Made by a program: the position numbers and the translations under genes. The notes under the pieces are model-generated. The model did not search any database. It saw nothing but the letters and a program-made list of their open reading frames with translations, and was not told where the DNA came from. Of a stretch of 62,761 bases of DNA, positions 33,137-48,437 are shown one piece after another. Position 1 is the stretch's first letter. Each line of letters opens with the position of its first letter. The DNA is taken from the NCBI GenBank assembly GCA_046303115.1, contig JBKCGZ010000190.1:1-62761 (forward strand), given 5' to 3'. The stretch is from Bacteroidota bacterium (GTDB taxonomy: Bacteria > Bacteroidota > Bacteroidia > AKYH767-A > OLB10).

Positions 33137-34798
33137 ATGATGCTTCGAAATAACTTCTTTTATTCATTGGTCTGCCTCTTTTTAGGGATTACTTTTTCTT
33201 CAGTTGGACAAAATAGCAAGCCCGATTTTAGATCGCCGGTGGATATTCCTATTTCACTGGCGGGCAATTTTTGTGAAATCAGACCCAATCATTTTCATTC
33301 CGGTATCGATATCCGAACAAATGGAAAGGAAGGCTTACCCATATTTGCAATTGATGATGGATATGTTTCAAGAATCAAGGTGAGTCCAACAGGATTTGGA
33401 AGAGTCGTTTATATCAACCATCCCGAAGGATATACCTCCGTTTATGCCCATTTATCTTCTTTCAATTCTCCGTTGGATGCTTTTGTCGACTCCATTCAAA
33501 AGGCCAACGAATCATACGATATGGAAGAATTTCCCGATGCCAAAAGATTTAAAGTCAATAAAGGGGATTGCATAGGATGGAGTGGTAATTCAGGATCGAG
33601 TGCTTCGCCACATCTGCACTTTGAAATTCGTGATTTGAAATCGGAAGAGCCATTGAATCCGCTGGCGTTTTTAAATTATGAAGATTCTATTGCGCCAGTT
33701 ATTGAACGGATTAGAATAGTCCATATCAATTTAGATAAAGTTTATAAACCAATAACTGATATCTCAACTTCAGATTATTTAATAACTGTAACCACCGGTA
33801 TTGATTATGGGGATTATTATTTTGAATTAAAAGGAAGTGACAATAGTGGAGATTCGTATATGAACTTTTATTCCATTAACGTAATGACAAATAAAGGCGA
33901 TACACTATTTGATTGTAAGTTCGACCGATTTAATTTCGACGAAACAAGAATGGTAAATTCATTTATTAATTACTCTTCATTAGTAAACGATAAAGAAGAA
34001 TGGCAAAGACTTTACAAGCTACCCTCCAACACAGCTACACTATTTAAAAACTGTATTTCGAAACCACTTACCATTTCGGATGATAATGATACAATATATT
34101 TTAAAGTTACTGACTATAGTGGCAATTCAACAGTTGAACAAGTCATACTATACGGATTTAAACAAGAAGAAATAATAGGAGATTATAAAGAATCAATTTG
34201 CAGATATTACAATGAAAGTTTTACCATTCCTTTTAAATATGGATTCATGAATATCCCTGCTAGTGGAATAGATCAATCACTTTGTTACGAATTAACCGAT
34301 TACGATACAATCCCCGACTCAACAACCTTTTTAATTGGAGATCCTTCTGTTCCTTTAATCAAGAATGCAACAGTAGTGATTCAAAAAAAACTAGGCACTA
34401 ACTTTTGGCTTTGCGAAAGAAATTGGAAGAATGAATTAACCGGAACCTCATTCAAGTTAGACAGTGCGAAATACGGTTATCAAACAAGCATTAAAAAAAT
34501 GGGATGGTACTCGGTAGAATGCGATAGTGTAGCACCACAACTCATAAAAGTAATATCAGAAAAAGACCCTATCATCAAGGAACAGAAAAACATATTATTA
34601 AAAATCAGCGATGATATTTCAGGAGTTAAAAAAGCCAATGTATTCATTAATGGAAATTTCCTTCCATGCGAATTTGATTTAAAACGAAGCAGCGTTGTGA
34701 TTAAAGGAAGTCAACTCAAAAAAGGTGATATCATCCATTTAAAATTAATCGACTATCAAGGAAATACTACCTTAATAGAAAAAGTCGATTGGAATTGA
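33137..34798 (+). CDS. M23 family metallopeptidase
   Basis: Signal peptide; HFHSGID, YAHL, PHLHFEIR. Confidence 0.92.
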   Translation: MMLRNNFFYSLVCLFLGITFSSVGQNSKPDFRSPVDIPISLAGNFCEIRPNHFHSGIDIRTNGKEGLPIFAIDDGYVSRIKVSPTGFGRVVYINHPEGYTSVYAHLSSFNSPLDAFVDSIQKANESYDMEEFPDAKRFKVNKGDCIGWSGNSGSSASPHLHFEIRDLKSEEPLNPLAFLNYEDSIAPVIERIRIVHINLDKVYKPITDISTSDYLITVTTGIDYGDYYFELKGSDNSGDSYMNFYSINVMTNKGDTLFDCKFDRFNFDETRMVNSFINYSSLVNDKEEWQRLYKLPSNTATLFKNCISKPLTISDDNDTIYFKVTDYSGNSTVEQVILYGFKQEEIIGDYKESICRYYNESFTIPFKYGFMNIPASGIDQSLCYELTDYDTIPDSTTFLIGDPSVPLIKNATVVIQKKLGTNFWLCERNWKNELTGTSFKLDSAKYGYQTSIKKMGWYSVECDSVAPQLIKVISEKDPIIKEQKNILLKISDDISGVKKANVFINGNFLPCEFDLKRSSVVIKGSQLKKGDIIHLKLIDYQGNTTLIEKVDWN

Positions 34799-34861
34799 CA
34801 AGGGTCATTCACGTACTATGATGTAAGTCATTTTAAAATGTTATCCGTCGCTGTACTTTTG
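34796..34861 (+). promoter_or_regulatory. Crp/Fnr-type promoter: tandem TGA-N6-TCA boxes and -7 element
   Basis: TGACAAGGGTCA 34796-34807, TGATGTAAGTCA 34819-34830, 23-nt gap, TACTTTTG 34854-34861. Confidence 0.75.
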
Positions 34862-34864
34862 ATT

Positions 34865-34955
34865 TCGAGATGGAGACATCCCATTGTACTAAAATAATAG
34901 TACCATAGTTTACTGGTTTGGATAGAGTCGCAGCAATGCGGCTCTACTTTTTTTT
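34865..34955 (+). ncRNA. Candidate unannotated ~90-nt small RNA
   Basis: Own promoter; hairpins GATG-GAGA-CATC and GTACTA-N6-TAGTAC; single-stranded GU-rich tract; ends in intrinsic terminator; the next gene has a separate -7-like box (TACTTTCG 34959-34966). Confidence 0.6.
34923..34955 (+). terminator. Intrinsic terminator
   Basis: tagagtcgca-GCAA-tgcggctcta followed by C and T8. Confidence 0.9.
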
Positions 34956-34976
34956 AGTTACTTTCGCGAAAGATTT

Positions 34977-35699
34977 ATGCTTATTCTATTTTACTTTTTG
35001 GCATTAGTGGCGGAGGTTGTTGGAACAATTGGAGGGTTTGGTTCTTCCATCTTTTTTGTCCCCATTGCATCATTCTATTTCGAACCTAAATTAGTCCTTG
35101 GCATCACTGCATTTTTTCATGTGTTTAGCAATATCTCAAAGCTGGTGTTATTTGGAAAGCATATCAAAATGAACATCGCTTTGAAGTTTATAATACCGAG
35201 TGTAATTGGTGTTATCATTGGAGCGCTGTTAGTCGCTAAACAATCAGGAGAGATTTTTTCTTTATCGATTGGAATATTCCTGATTTTATTTGCACTGTAC
35301 TTTTTAATTTATCCGAATAAAACAATCAACGCAACCAACAAGAACATTGTGATAGGAGGAAGTAGCGCAGGATTTTTAGCAGGATTTATTGGTACAGGCG
35401 GAGTCATTCGTGGAGCAGCAATGGCGGCATTTAATCTCGAAAAGAATTGCTTTGTTGCTACCTCAGCATTTATCGATTTATTCGTTGATATTAGTCGTTC
35501 TGCAATCTATTATCAAAATGAATTTATTGCAAAAGATAAATGGTATTATATCCTTCCGTTGATTTTCATTTCTTTCGCTGGAAGCTATATTGGAAAATTA
35601 ATTCTTGAAAAATTAAACCAAGATAAGTTCAGAAGAATAGTTTTAATTTTAATTTCGATAATGGGAACAGTATCGGTAATTCGATTTATATGCCAGTAA
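34977..35699 (+). CDS. TSUP / sulfite exporter TauE/SafE family protein
   Basis: GTIGGFGSS and AGFIGTGG repeats, 8 TM. Confidence 0.85.
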   Translation: MLILFYFLALVAEVVGTIGGFGSSIFFVPIASFYFEPKLVLGITAFFHVFSNISKLVLFGKHIKMNIALKFIIPSVIGVIIGALLVAKQSGEIFSLSIGIFLILFALYFLIYPNKTINATNKNIVIGGSSAGFLAGFIGTGGVIRGAAMAAFNLEKNCFVATSAFIDLFVDISRSAIYYQNEFIAKDKWYYILPLIFISFAGSYIGKLILEKLNQDKFRRIVLILISIMGTVSVIRFICQ

Positions 35700-36688
35700 A
35701 GGATAAAAATTTCAGGACAAAAGTAAATGCCATTTCAGTGGTGCTGGCACTTTCTGTTTTGATTATGCTCATCAAATTCGTTGCTTATTACGTTACGAAA
35801 TCGAATGCATTATTATCAGATGCCCTTGAATCGTTTATCAATATTGCCACCAGCTCATTTACGCTTTACAGTATTTATTATTCTGCAAAATTAAAAGACC
35901 ATGATCATCCTTACGGACATGGTAAGATTGAATACCTTGCTGTAGGATTTGAAGGTGCCTTGATTTTAGGAACGGGCGTTTACATTTTATATGAAGCCTT
36001 TAATCATTTCATCCATCCAGAGCCTTTACAAAATGTAGATCTCGGAATTATGATTACTGCATCCACTGGACTATTCATGTATTTCATTGGATCGTTTTTG
36101 AAGAAGAAAGGTCGTGAGTTAGATTCAATTACTTTGGTTGCAGATGGAGAACATTTTCACTTGGACACTATCACCAGCATCGCACTAATTGTTGGATTAG
36201 TTTTATATCACTTAACCAAGTTAACCTGGATTGATCCATTACTCGCTGTATTGCTCGCTGTCCATATTATGATGAGTGGATATAAGCTTACCAAAGAGTC
36301 TATTGATCGTTTACTAGATAAAGCCGATTTCGATACCATTCAGAATGTGGTGAACTCCTTAAATAAAAATCGTAAACCCAACTGGATTGATATTCACAAT
36401 TTACGAATGCAGCGCTTTGGAAATATTATCCATATTGATTGTCATCTAACGCTTCCGTTTTATTACGCACTCGACCAAGTGCATAATGAAATCAAAAATT
36501 TAGAAGCAGATATCAATAAAGACTTCAATCAAGAAGTTGAGTTTTTTGTTCATACCGATCCTTGCAATGAAGAATTCCCTTGCAAGCTATGTAATGTAGA
36601 AGAATGTGCGTTTCGAAAGTTCGACCACCTTCAAACAGTTGATTGGGATATTAAAAATCTGATGGCTAATAAAAAGCATCAGCTGTAA
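35690..36688 (+). CDS. Cation diffusion facilitator family transporter
   Basis: ALLSDALES, DHDHPYGHGKIE, ADGEH, DIHNLR, Cys-rich tail. Confidence 0.93.
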   Translation: MPVKDKNFRTKVNAISVVLALSVLIMLIKFVAYYVTKSNALLSDALESFINIATSSFTLYSIYYSAKLKDHDHPYGHGKIEYLAVGFEGALILGTGVYILYEAFNHFIHPEPLQNVDLGIMITASTGLFMYFIGSFLKKKGRELDSITLVADGEHFHLDTITSIALIVGLVLYHLTKLTWIDPLLAVLLAVHIMMSGYKLTKESIDRLLDKADFDTIQNVVNSLNKNRKPNWIDIHNLRMQRFGNIIHIDCHLTLPFYYALDQVHNEIKNLEADINKDFNQEVEFFVHTDPCNEEFPCKLCNVEECAFRKFDHLQTVDWDIKNLMANKKHQL

Positions 36689-42546: not shown

Positions 42547-42718
42547 AATGATTGATTTTTGATTTTTCGTTTGATGTTATTTCATTATCCATTAATATGC
42601 GAACTGCAGGGGAAGTATCATCATCAAATTGTCCTGTTTTAACAGACCAGAAAAATGCAATCAGAAATCCGATAGCAACGGTTAAACTGGCAATGATTAA
42701 AAGGATGATTACTTTCAT
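42536..42718 (-). CDS. ccoS: cbb3 oxidase maturation protein CcoS
   Basis: Hydrophobic N-terminus then WSVKTGQFDD...PAVRIL. Confidence 0.93.
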   Translation of the reverse strand: MKVIILLIIASLTVAIGFLIAFFWSVKTGQFDDDTSPAVRILMDNEITSNEKSKINHYDN

Positions 42719-45816: not shown

Positions 45817-46875
45817 TTAAGCTTTTAAATGTCGAAGCTTTTCATCATTGATGATTTTAATTTTTCCTTCTTTAATCTCAATTAACTTTTCTTCTTTAAA
45901 ATCACTAAGCGTTCTAATCAACGACTCAGTAGCTGTCCCAACAATATTGGCTAAATCTTCACGAGCGATAGCCATAGCAAAATGAGATGCATCAGTCGTC
46001 TTGTACTTATCTTGTAATAAAATCAATGCCTCGGCAGTTCTCTTTCTAACAGAACTGTAAGCCAATTCTAATAGACGTTCTTGCTTATCGATAACACCCT
46101 TTGTTAAGAAACGAATAAAGTTCTTCGTAACGGCATGGTTGCTATAAACCAGATTAAAAAACTCTTCCTTCGGAATGAAAATCACTTCTGACTCTTCTAG
46201 CGTTTCAGCACTTTCAATATAAGGCTTTTCTTCTAACAGCGACACATATCCGAAGAAATCACCTTCTTTCAATAAATCAGTGATCAACTCTTTACCATAC
46301 TCATGCGTCTTGGTAATTTTAACCTTACCTGACTTCACATAATAAATTCCGTTAGGGTAGTGGTGCTCCTGATAAATCTTTTCTTTCTTTTTATAATGAT
46401 TCACTTTTTTACCATCTAGGAATTTCTTCAAGGCTGCATCACCAGCCACATCACTGATGAAATGACTTAGTCCATCAAAGTCAGGCTGATAATCTTTCTT
46501 AAGTGCATCAGCTCTTTTCAAACGACTTTCAATAGCGTTTAATAATTCCGTCTTATCAAAAGGTTTGGTGATATAATCATCAGCACCTAAATCCATTCCT
46601 TTACGCATATCGCTGCGCTCAGCTTTTGCCGTCAAGAAAATAAATGGAACTGAATTTAAATCATTATCCTTACTCAGTAAATGTAAAACTCCATAGCCAT
46701 CTAAACCTGGCATCATGATATCACAGATAATCAAATCTGGTTTTTCCTTACGAGCCATTTCAACACCCTCTTTTCCATCCGGTGCTGTACAAACTGTATA
46801 ATTCGCCAGCTCTAAAATTTCAGCTGTATTTTCTCTTACATCCAGATTGTCTTCAATTAATAAAATCTTTTTCAT
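45817..46875 (-). CDS. Response regulator: receiver domain fused to a Crp/Fnr cNMP-like and HTH domain
   Basis: LLIEDN, ICDIMMPGLDG, FLTAK, DDYITKPF; then GKVKI, GDFFG; HTH REDLANIVGTATESLIRTLSDFK. Confidence 0.93.
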   Translation of the reverse strand: MKKILLIEDNLDVRENTAEILELANYTVCTAPDGKEGVEMARKEKPDLIICDIMMPGLDGYGVLHLLSKDNDLNSVPFIFLTAKAERSDMRKGMDLGADDYITKPFDKTELLNAIESRLKRADALKKDYQPDFDGLSHFISDVAGDAALKKFLDGKKVNHYKKKEKIYQEHHYPNGIYYVKSGKVKITKTHEYGKELITDLLKEGDFFGYVSLLEEKPYIESAETLEESEVIFIPKEEFFNLVYSNHAVTKNFIRFLTKGVIDKQERLLELAYSSVRKRTAEALILLQDKYKTTDASHFAMAIAREDLANIVGTATESLIRTLSDFKEEKLIEIKEGKIKIINDEKLRHLKA

Positions 46876-46879
46876 AGCA

Positions 46880-48121
46880 TTAATTTATTTGATTCGGAAA
46901 AGTGATCTCAATCCTTGTTCCTTCGTTTAGTTTACTTGTTAAATGTAAATGACCTTTCATAATGTCAACATAGTTGCCCACAATATGCAACCCTAATCCT
47001 GTACCTTGAATATTAAATGCATTTTTTCCTCTATAGAAACGCTCAAACAAATGCTTCAAATCTTCTTCGCTAATTCCAATTCCCTGATCTTGCACCACCA
47101 TCTTTATTTCATTGGTATTTACATCTGCATCCAATGTTATAGACTTGCCTTCTGATGAAAATTTAATAGCATTACTTAAAAGATTAAAAAGAATATTCTT
47201 GATTAGCTTAGCATCAAGAAACACCAAATTATCACCACGATAATTAATAATTATTTCTTGTCCTGCTTTTGTATTCTGACGCATATCACTCGCAATTTCA
47301 TTTATCAGCATATTCAAATCGAACATACTCATATCGGCATGAATCTTTCCTTCTTCTAATTTACTGATGGATAGAAAATCACTTAAGATATCATTCAGGT
47401 TATTAACTGACGATTGAATTCGTTTGATATGCTTTTGCTTTTTCTCTTCTTGCTCAGGAGTTTTATATTCTGAAATCAAAACAGCAGAAGAAAGGATAGT
47501 GGTGAGTGGTGTACGAAACTCATGCGATGCCATTGAAATAAATCGCGACTTTAAATCATTCAGGTCTTTTTCTTTTTCAAGTGCCATACTTAATTCTGAT
47601 CTCGACTTCTCTAATTCCAAAATTGCTTCCTGCAAAACGCTGGTACGATCAGAAACCTTTCGTTCTAAATCTTCATTCGACTTTTGCAAGGTAAGTGCAA
47701 TCTGTTCGAGTTCTAATTGTTTTTCCTTAACCGCAGCTTCAATTTTCTTTCTGATAGAAATATCAATTAAAAAGGCAATTATGTATTTTCGATCATCCTT
47801 AAAAATAGGACTCAAACTAATCTCGATAGGAAACAAGGTCCCATCTTTTCTTAAAGCATATAAATCTAAACCCAATCCCATCGGACGAGCGTGAGGCTTA
47901 TCGACATACGATTTACGATGATGTTCATGATGTACTTTGATGTTCTTAGGAACCAATACATCAATCGATTCATTTAATAATTCATTCGACTCATATCCGA
48001 ACATCTTACATGCTGCTGGATTCATCAATTGAATCAATCCACTTTCATTGGAAATAATAATCCCTTCAGTAGCATGATTGAATAGGGCATCGAGCAACTC
48101 GACTTTCTCAAAATTCTGCAT
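46880..48121 (-). CDS. Cytoplasmic PAS-domain sensor histidine kinase (FixL-like)
   Basis: PAS (NPAACKMFGY...HHEHH...RPMG...RKDGTLFPIEISLS), H-box SHEFRTPL, N-box NLLSNAIKF, G-boxes DQGIG and GTGLGL; no TM. Confidence 0.93.
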   Translation of the reverse strand: MQNFEKVELLDALFNHATEGIIISNESGLIQLMNPAACKMFGYESNELLNESIDVLVPKNIKVHHEHHRKSYVDKPHARPMGLGLDLYALRKDGTLFPIEISLSPIFKDDRKYIIAFLIDISIRKKIEAAVKEKQLELEQIALTLQKSNEDLERKVSDRTSVLQEAILELEKSRSELSMALEKEKDLNDLKSRFISMASHEFRTPLTTILSSAVLISEYKTPEQEEKKQKHIKRIQSSVNNLNDILSDFLSISKLEEGKIHADMSMFDLNMLINEIASDMRQNTKAGQEIIINYRGDNLVFLDAKLIKNILFNLLSNAIKFSSEGKSITLDADVNTNEIKMVVQDQGIGISEEDLKHLFERFYRGKNAFNIQGTGLGLHIVGNYVDIMKGHLHLTSKLNEGTRIEITFPNQIN

Positions 48122-48170
48122 TTGACTAAAATAAGTAAGCTCTAAAAATAAACATTTTTAATGCGCTCTT

Positions 48171-48350
48171 TTATTTATTGCTGTTATATCCTGCTAAATA
48201 ATACAACGGACAAAATCCAGAAGCACCTGTTACAAACGGGATTAATCCCGAAATTGCCCAAAATGAATTATGATAGATAAAAAAAGACGCGACAGCTACT
48301 CCAGCAACTAAGCGAATAACTCGTTCATTAAAATTTTCATTGGTTACCAT
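48171..48350 (-). CDS. DUF2892 (YgaP-like membrane domain) protein
   Basis: NENFNERVIRL, GFCPLY motif; start moved to ATG 48350. Confidence 0.85.
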   Translation of the reverse strand: MVTNENFNERVIRLVAGVAVASFFIYHNSFWAISGLIPFVTGASGFCPLYYLAGYNSNK

Positions 48351-48372
48351 AGTGATATTTATTTGTTGAATC

Positions 48373-48437
48373 CAAAAGTAGATGCTCCATCCAACCAAAT
48401 AAATTACGCTAATCAGTACACGTTATGATAAATATCA
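48373..48437 (-). promoter_or_regulatory. Crp/Fnr-type promoter upstream of DUF2892-kinase-regulator
   Basis: -7 box TACTTTTG (48373-48380, minus), 23-nt gap, TTACGCTAATCA 48404-48415, TGATAAATATCA 48426-48437. Confidence 0.75.

Follow-up and report, generated by a model that had tools for sequence, protein, structure and literature searches.

Small RNAs (sRNAs) that respond to oxygen are known in Proteobacteria. AniS of Neisseria and PaiI of Pseudomonas are reportedly oxygen-limitation sRNAs of independent origin, and AniS is said to depend on Hfq. The enterobacterial FnrS is described, in the passages of its source that bear on it, as an anaerobically induced base-pairing sRNA activated by FNR and ArcA (PMC10993149). 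For the phylum Bacteroidota, a search of open-access full texts, outside which supplementary sRNA lists fall, found no oxygen-responsive sRNA. The sections of PMC7366714 that deal with Bacteroides report a -7 promoter consensus of TAnnTTTG, no obvious homologue of Hfq or ProQ, three classes of Bacteroides thetaiotaomicron sRNA (derived from a 5' untranslated region (UTR), derived from a 3' UTR, and intra-operonic), and one sRNA, GibS, whose conserved single-stranded seed pairs with translation initiation regions. Here we describe a locus of Bacteroidota in which a comparable RNA may be controlled by oxygen. It lies in a 62,761-nucleotide (nt) stretch of DNA from an uncultured freshwater bacterium (contig JBKCGZ010000190.1; the whole of this stretch is called the window below), where a 178-nt gap between an M23 peptidase gene and a TSUP-family gene holds an entire unit of promoter, predicted RNA and terminator.

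The reading favoured here, at a probability of roughly 0.5, is that the unit specifies an sRNA under Crp/Fnr-type control, either stand-alone or derived from an operon leader, which base-pairs with other RNAs through an invariant 18-nt tract. That the unit is a genuine, conserved and structured feature at the RNA level is a much firmer proposition and very probably correct. A sequence-only reading of this DNA had picked out two promoter boxes, a -7 element, two hairpins, a single-stranded tract and a GCAA-capped terminator, and each of them lies where it had been placed:

34796-34807, + strand: distal Crp/Fnr-type box TGACAAGGGTCA (TGA-N6-TCA)
34819-34830, + strand: proximal Crp/Fnr-type box TGATGTAAGTCA, its centre ~41-43 nt before the predicted start, a class II-like distance
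34854-34861, + strand: -7 promoter box TACTTTTG, agreeing with the Bacteroidota consensus TAnnTTTG
34866-34955, + strand: predicted non-coding RNA of ~87-90 nt, from fold, alignments and covariation, with a predicted start at 34866-34869 and a predicted end within the U-tract
34869-34880, + strand: hairpin 1, GAUG-GAGA-CAUC, from the fold
34886-34903, + strand: hairpin 2, GUACUA-AAAUAA-UAGUAC, from the fold
34904-34922, + strand: unpaired stretch between hairpin 2 and the terminator
34904-34921, + strand: invariant 18-nt tract CAUAGUUUACUGGUUUGG (in DNA letters CATAGTTTACTGGTTTGG), the candidate seed
34923-34955, + strand: intrinsic terminator with a 10-bp stem and GCAA loop (TAGAGTCGCA-GCAA-TGCGGCTCTA, 34923-34946), then C, then the U8 run (T8 in DNA, 34948-34955)

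Conservation carries the case for the unit. A DNA search of 60 relatives matched the region in four genomes of the same genus (E = 3.5e-67 to 8e-25), and in an alignment of same-genus genomes the segment from the -7 box to the terminator is far better kept than its flanks, with a mean column identity of 89% across the RNA versus 63% for the wider region. All five genomes of the window's lineage have the same tract, and it is identical at 16 of 18 positions in the second lineage of the genus and in a second genus, a level that persists where the TSUP protein is only 53-60% identical. A covariance model of five sequences retrieved weaker, tract-bearing copies from six further genomes, three in the window's genus and three in the second. 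The pattern CATAGTTTNCNGGTTTGG occurs in exactly one copy in each of 11 of the 83 family genomes (8 of the 12 from the window's genus, 3 of the 20 from the second and none of the 51 from the remaining 21 genera), and a reversed control pattern gives no match in the same 83. A second RNA model, comprising the tract and terminator, was run on 146 genomes of the order; since its matches at E up to 0.05, which fall in 126 of the 146, are nearly all ordinary terminators, the gap in bit scores and the presence of the tract were used as the criterion instead. The 11 known copies score 76-87 bits. The next match, at 44 bits, adds a fourth second-genus genome, whose copy has diverged; the seven matches inspected below that score are ordinary terminators. 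Seven additional contigs with the unit came from a metagenome scan. A contig pattern scan with 15 fixed bases returned at least 119 stretches, mostly chance matches in unrelated phyla, and among the listed matches 1 of the 16 stretches passing the terminator filter is a true copy, on a contig of a same-genus genome. Genome G067 figures in these counts solely among the genomes that have no true copy.

The middle of the tract varies, reading ACT, GCA or ACG, and one metatranscriptome contig, derived from a close relative, has G for T there, at 34914. This fits a putative seed made of two blocks, CAUAGUUU and GGUUUGG, separated by unconstrained positions.

The structure of the RNA is conserved along with its sequence. 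The fold of 34862-34955 consists of hairpin 1, hairpin 2 and the terminator hairpin and leaves the tract unpaired in both the minimum-free-energy and the centroid structure. At -24.4 kcal/mol (z = -2.64, with 3 of 200 shuffles folding as well) the single-sequence statistics are modest, and it is conservation that shows the unit to be beyond chance. In the alignment of eight genus copies fitted to the model, a fit that biases the pair counts, standard pairs fill 140 of 140 pair cells and 7 of the 20 pairs have changed on both sides (one in hairpin 1, two in hairpin 2 and four in the terminator); none of 500 shuffles matches the observed pairing values, and slid controls give 0-1. One further pair among the six of hairpin 2 has changed on one side, with every cell still paired, and the place of hairpin 1 is taken in the second lineage of the genus by CUGAU-N6-AUCAG. 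The compensatory changes in the terminator affect 4 of its 10 stem pairs within the genus and 6 of 14 predicted pairs across genera, and RNAalifold applied to MAFFT alignments recovers the same helices. The homologues and covariation that the sequence-only reading proposed to look for are both present, the latter in all three helices. Between the two genera the 5' parts do not align; held in common are the last small hairpin arm, the tract and the terminator, preceded by a 5' part that ranges from 36 to ~165 nt or consists of a whole Hsp20 gene. No conserved open reading frame (ORF) was found in the unit among the relatives. Comparison with Rfam, also proposed by that reading, gave no family match, either by cmscan of 33500-36500 at E up to 10 or at gathering thresholds across the whole window (0 matches). 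The sole Rfam alignment on the unit, to leuA-Halobacteria, covers only the terminator stem at 17.5 bits against a cut-off of 47.9 and was rejected. 

The promoter of the unit resembles those of the cbb3 oxidase genes, as had been suspected from the sequence: the same two-box geometry stands before ccoS-ccoNO and ccoI. Against an expectation of 3.5, the window contains 11 instances of the pattern TGAYNNNNGTCA, a count that none of 100 shuffles reaches. Across genomes, TAnnTTTG occupies the equivalent place in 11 of 11 loci, and the distal box starts 57-58 nt ahead of the start of the -7 box in 10 of them, the exception being G004, in which the distal box has decayed and the proximal box is still there. 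Another box, or an RTCAT half-site, comes 22-23 nt behind the first, which puts it ~41-43 nt ahead of the expected start, and the right half of the proximal box, RTCAT, is retained in all homologous loci. In the window this geometry recurs at four promoters, all within 14 kb, each with a box 57-58 nt before TAnn(T/C)TTG; the fourth precedes an operon encoding a predicted oxygen sensor:

34796: promoter of the unit
42791: promoter of ccoS-ccoNO
45295: promoter of ccoI, with -7 box TAATCTTG
48437: promoter of the sensor operon
45817-48437, - strand: sensor operon
48171-48350, - strand: YgaP-like membrane protein of 59 amino acids (aa), first gene of the sensor operon
46880-48121, - strand: FixL-like heme-PAS histidine kinase
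45817-46875, - strand: receiver-cNMP-HTH_Crp fusion regulator, ~11 kb from the unit

Genome-wide, this box architecture is found 10 times, versus 1-4 in shuffles, and the geometry common to the four promoters may be the signature of a cbb3 respiration regulon in the lineage. The minus-strand neighbours of the unit form a cbb3 oxidase cluster, encoding a DsbD_2-family protein, FixH, FixG, FixP, a CcoN-CcoO fusion, a CcoI-type ATPase, the receiver-cNMP-HTH_Crp fusion regulator and the PAS histidine kinase. The ccoN-ccoO fusion gene is separated from its box promoter by a small ORF, MKVIILLIIASL... at 42550-42716 (-), with just 8 nt from the -7 box to its ATG; from its resemblance to CcoS it is presumably ccoS.

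The PAS domain of the kinase is closest to the heme-PAS sensors FixL and DosP (E = 4e-13 to 2e-12) and keeps a histidine in the column that we take to be the position of the FixL heme ligand. The regulator joins a receiver domain to a Crp/Fnr output, its C-terminal part matching structures of the Crp/Fnr family. The sensor operon resembles a FixL/FixJ/FixK cascade condensed to just two proteins, and the geometry of its own promoter suggests autoregulation. Because the unit shares its promoter geometry with ccoS-ccoNO, ccoI and the operon of the FixL-like kinase and its regulator, we infer, as a reasonable step from these promoters, that this pair controls the unit at low oxygen. In Flavobacterium psychrophilum the cbb3 oxidase is up-regulated under oxygen limitation, according to the relevant part of PMC9723704.

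The mechanism proposed for the unit begins with a regulator of the Crp/Fnr (FixK) type, most probably the receiver-Crp/Fnr fusion 11 kb away, which would bind the two TGA-N6-TCA boxes under the control of the FixL-like heme-PAS kinase. The TACTTTTG promoter would then be switched on at low oxygen, together with the cbb3 oxidase genes. The transcript would fold into two short hairpins and stop at the strong intrinsic terminator, exposing between hairpin 2 and the terminator the 18-nt tract that is near-invariant in two genera and is most likely a seed for pairing with other RNAs. The product would be an sRNA acting in trans without Hfq or ProQ; neither Hfq (PF17209) nor ProQ (PF04352) has a match in the 98.9% complete genome, in a search in which control genomes scored. 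For action in trans speaks that the tract is kept as a sequence and unpaired, and that the 5' parts vary while the module of tract and terminator stays constant. As the RNA occupies the 5'-leader position of a DoxX/TSUP/CDF operon (CDF, cation diffusion facilitator), read-through may also add a low-oxygen component to expression of the operon. A more specific version, held only tentatively, is that the kinase and fusion regulator drive a chaperone-independent sRNA whose 18-nt seed forms a post-transcriptional arm of the cbb3 regulon, within a portable module that belongs to a stand-alone or leader RNA in some species and to the 3' UTR of a co-regulated Hsp20 gene in sister species. In some genomes the seed may in addition feed back on the sensor operon, through a complementary region at the start of its first gene.

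Set beside FnrS, the unit shares a short RNA, an intrinsic terminator, a Crp/Fnr-family box at a class II-like distance and a proposed role as the post-transcriptional arm of a low-oxygen response. It differs in that FnrS pairs with mRNAs of aerobic metabolism in an Hfq-dependent manner, whereas the host of the unit has no Hfq match and no targets were found; in its likely regulator, a phosphorylation-controlled receiver-Crp/Fnr fusion rather than the iron-sulfur protein FNR; and in its position in an operon leader. Membership of the FnrS family was considered and rejected, the FnrS covariance model giving no match to 33500-36500 at E up to 10. The unit may work like FnrS and is not a member of its family, which makes the wording of the sequence-only reading, analogous in role and not in sequence, an apt caution. 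AniS and PaiI come from different phyla and are unrelated to the unit in sequence. With GibS and the other B. thetaiotaomicron sRNAs, to the extent that they are described in the sections cited above, the unit shares its phylum, the combination of a TAnnTTTG promoter with an intrinsic terminator, a conserved single-stranded stretch (a candidate seed in the unit) and a host in which neither Hfq nor ProQ is evident; unlike GibS, to which it is unrelated in sequence, its putative seed adjoins the terminator rather than the 5' end, and it is known from sequence alone, in an uncultured lineage. Like a canonical intergenic sRNA, the predicted RNA has an intrinsic terminator at its 3' end (10-bp stem and U8, covarying).

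Several observations weigh against a base-pairing sRNA. The unit is narrowly spread, in two genera of one family only. Expression support is limited to single low-depth contigs from relatives, which show neither a discrete RNA nor its absence: four metatranscriptome runs contain 5-10% of the sampled words, and over 34600-35400 they yield five contigs of 151-169 nt, 90-99% alike at a depth of 2-3.5, of which one spans 34840-34990, across the predicted start and the terminator, and others cover 34748-34898, 34627-34797 and 34600-34851. These contigs may come from DNA carry-over or from relatives. Genome searches and individual candidates alike gave no target above background. In each of the 12 genomes and 7 metagenome contigs that carry it, the unit stands directly before the DoxX/TSUP/CDF operon, an arrangement that fits a role in cis equally well. 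A TSUP orthologue is present in 9 of the 12 genomes of the genus, eight with the unit and a ninth that ends at a contig end, and the three without a TSUP gene also have no unit. Lastly, among seven second-genus loci that have no unit, five have DoxX directly behind a promoter with TGA-N6-TCA and TAATTTTA boxes; the unit has therefore been inserted into, or lost from, an operon already carrying such boxes.

The target searches were crude, made with rough gene calls in one genome. In a duplex scan of the window's whole genome no target stands out; the seed complement, sought there within five mismatches, has seven sites at four mismatches, none of them at a gene start. Across 5577 candidate start regions the best duplex reaches -25.2 kcal/mol, on a level with eight shuffled seeds, whose best values run from -20.2 to -23.8. 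The bipartite motif AAACC-N0-8-AACTATG has 8 matches in the window's genome versus 2-8 for controls, and 6-8 versus 3-10 in five relatives; CCAAACC occurs near gene starts 6 times, versus 1-15 for control heptamers. The start region of a sigma-factor gene was discarded as a target, its site not being retained in four relatives, as were near-complements in five other genomes, which lie at non-orthologous positions. The start region of the YgaP-like gene is a lead only: its complementarity to the seed is strong in three of ten genomes (G009, G088 and G078, shuffled seeds being as good at a frequency of 0 to 0.003), borderline in five (in G000 and G007, 9 bp over the start codon as read by eye, with shuffled seeds as good at ~0.05-0.06, and in G011, G077 and G005 at 0.06-0.13) and absent in two (G006 and G001, at 0.59 and 0.97). 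A separate observation concerns a gene for a 150-aa membrane protein (G000:C206:4666-5118, +), whose start region AAACCAcaaAAACTATGG shows complementarity to each of the tract's two halves; upstream of it lie a TAATTTTG box and a pair of GTCAT half-sites, and the site is found in only one relative.

The gene settings on which the alternative readings turn are these:

33137-34798, + strand: M23 peptidase gene (Pfam PF01551), its stop codon overlapping the distal box
34960-34967, + strand: -7-like box TACTTTCG, 10 nt before the TSUP start codon, a candidate second promoter
34977-35699, + strand: TSUP / TauE-SafE family membrane protein gene (Pfam PF01925, E = 7e-36)
35690-36688, + strand: CDF gene (Pfam PF01545 and PF16916), overlapping the TSUP stop
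Window's genus: gene order M23, unit, TSUP, CDF
Second genus, two genomes: gene order M23, unit, DoxX, TSUP, CDF
Second genus, G077, G090 and one metagenome contig: gene order Hsp20, tract and terminator, DoxX; the box promoter before Hsp20 is seen in G077 only, where CDF is also seen
Second genus, unit-less loci L208, L209, L210, L214 and L215: box promoter before DoxX-TSUP-CDF

Because the unit lies directly upstream of the same operon in all genomes and contigs examined, a role in cis is a serious rival. The unit would then be a leader or attenuator in which the Crp/Fnr-type promoter serves the DoxX/TSUP/CDF operon and the terminator gates transcription, with the tract as the place where a protein, small RNA or ligand binds to modulate termination, and the short RNA as a by-product. 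We consider this somewhat unlikely. It accounts for the constant place of the unit between promoter and operon, kept even where an Hsp20 gene has come between promoter and tract, for its co-occurrence with the TSUP gene within the genus, and for the box promoters before DoxX in unit-less loci. The order of promoter, structured leader, terminator and operon is that of known attenuators and riboswitch leaders, in which, as here, a conserved stretch touches the terminator: the tract lies 0-3 nt from the terminator stem in all copies, and nascent-RNA folds pair it with the 5' arm of the terminator in seven of nine sequences. However, this alternative hairpin is weak and forms in two registers, with many G-U pairs or mismatches and without covariation, and the window's own copy does not form it, so that no conserved antiterminator emerges among the nine folds. 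Nor does the unit share an aptamer across genera, the 5' parts being wholly different, or match any riboswitch or leader family in Rfam, and the tract has no conserved pairing partner within 1.5 kb on either side.

The operon, moreover, retains its own, weaker -7-like box past the terminator. The sequence-only reading had noticed this box before TSUP and concluded that the unit is not simply a leader of that gene. The box itself stands up well, with TAnnTTCG retained in relatives and enriched upstream of genes; the conclusion is supported in so far as it rests on that box, and is weakened by the invariable place of the unit directly before one and the same operon. In eight loci of the window's genus (g1), in G077 and in G090 the terminator is followed by a TAnnTT(C/A)G box, reading TACATTCG, TATCTTCG or TATATTCG in relatives and TATCTTAG in two genomes, and two second-genus (g8) loci have poorer versions. 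In genome G000, with rough gene calls, TAnnTTCG is present in 112 of 2005 upstream regions versus 25 of 2005 regions inside genes, the second-highest ratio among ten TAnnTTnn variants; the highest belongs to TAnnTTTG, with corresponding counts of 396 and 37. Of the TAnnTTTG boxes that lie no more than 70 nt ahead of a gene (rough calls), some 30% end 10 nt or less from the start codon, which hints at frequent very short leaders in this genome. A short 5' UTR is likewise predicted for the putative ccoS, with its 8 nt between -7 box and ATG. The post-terminator box supports the view that TSUP need not depend on read-through of the terminator.

A second alternative, that the tract binds a protein and the RNA is a decoy or sponge, or that the tract is a recognition site for a nuclease or chaperone, is improbable. 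The tract is conserved by sequence and not by pairing, it contains two similar half-blocks (AGUUU and GGUUUGG), and the searches for RNA targets came back empty, all of which such a role would explain. Against it, each RNA has a single tract, whereas known protein-sponge RNAs carry repeated sites; no candidate binding protein was identified, and the emptiness of the target search has to be read in light of the crudeness of that search.

It is more improbable still that the hairpin merely terminates the upstream M23 or Hsp20 gene, with no RNA start of its own and with the boxes regulating something else. There is no other terminator between the M23 stop (34798) and 34923, the module directly ends the Hsp20 gene in two genomes and one metagenome contig, and two of the RNA-library contigs cross the M23 end or the predicted start, a weak point given that they possibly derive from DNA. 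This reading leaves unexplained, however, the invariant tract, the covarying hairpins 1 and 2 and a -7 box held at a fixed distance from the distal box, both in 10 of 11 loci and at three other promoters of the window. In the loci where Hsp20 precedes the module, the Hsp20 stop codon lies inside the tract (L077/G077 1059-1560; L232/G090; L307), being the TAG of CATAG (CTTAG in G090), and the tract-terminator module is therefore the Hsp20 3' UTR there.

A very small peptide, ATGGAGACATCC... with 12 codons in the window, is rejected as highly improbable: an ATG inside hairpin 1 is retained in five genomes of the window's lineage, but frame and length vary among relatives, a 2-nt indel shifting the frame to give products of 6-12 residues with different tails (read by eye), the second lineage of the genus having just a 3-codon ORF that begins with GTG in one genome, and the best-conserved tract lying outside or at the very end of these ORFs.

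If the base-pairing sRNA acts in trans, it would give a first way into how the change to cbb3 respiration is controlled after transcription in a phylum without Hfq or ProQ, and would exemplify a single seed module used in leaders as well as in 3' UTRs. Should the action instead be in cis, the unit would be a new attenuator before a membrane-transport operon (DoxX/TSUP/CDF) that is linked to the assembly of cbb3 oxidase. In both cases the regulon signature, in which TGA-N6-TCA stands 57 nt ahead of the -7 box and which is accompanied by a FixL-like kinase and a receiver-Crp/Fnr fusion, helps in annotating relatives. Among these, G004 (L005/L071) is identical to G007 (L002/L074) from the terminator onward and only ~75% alike upstream, a mosaic that suggests recombination or a chimeric assembly bin.

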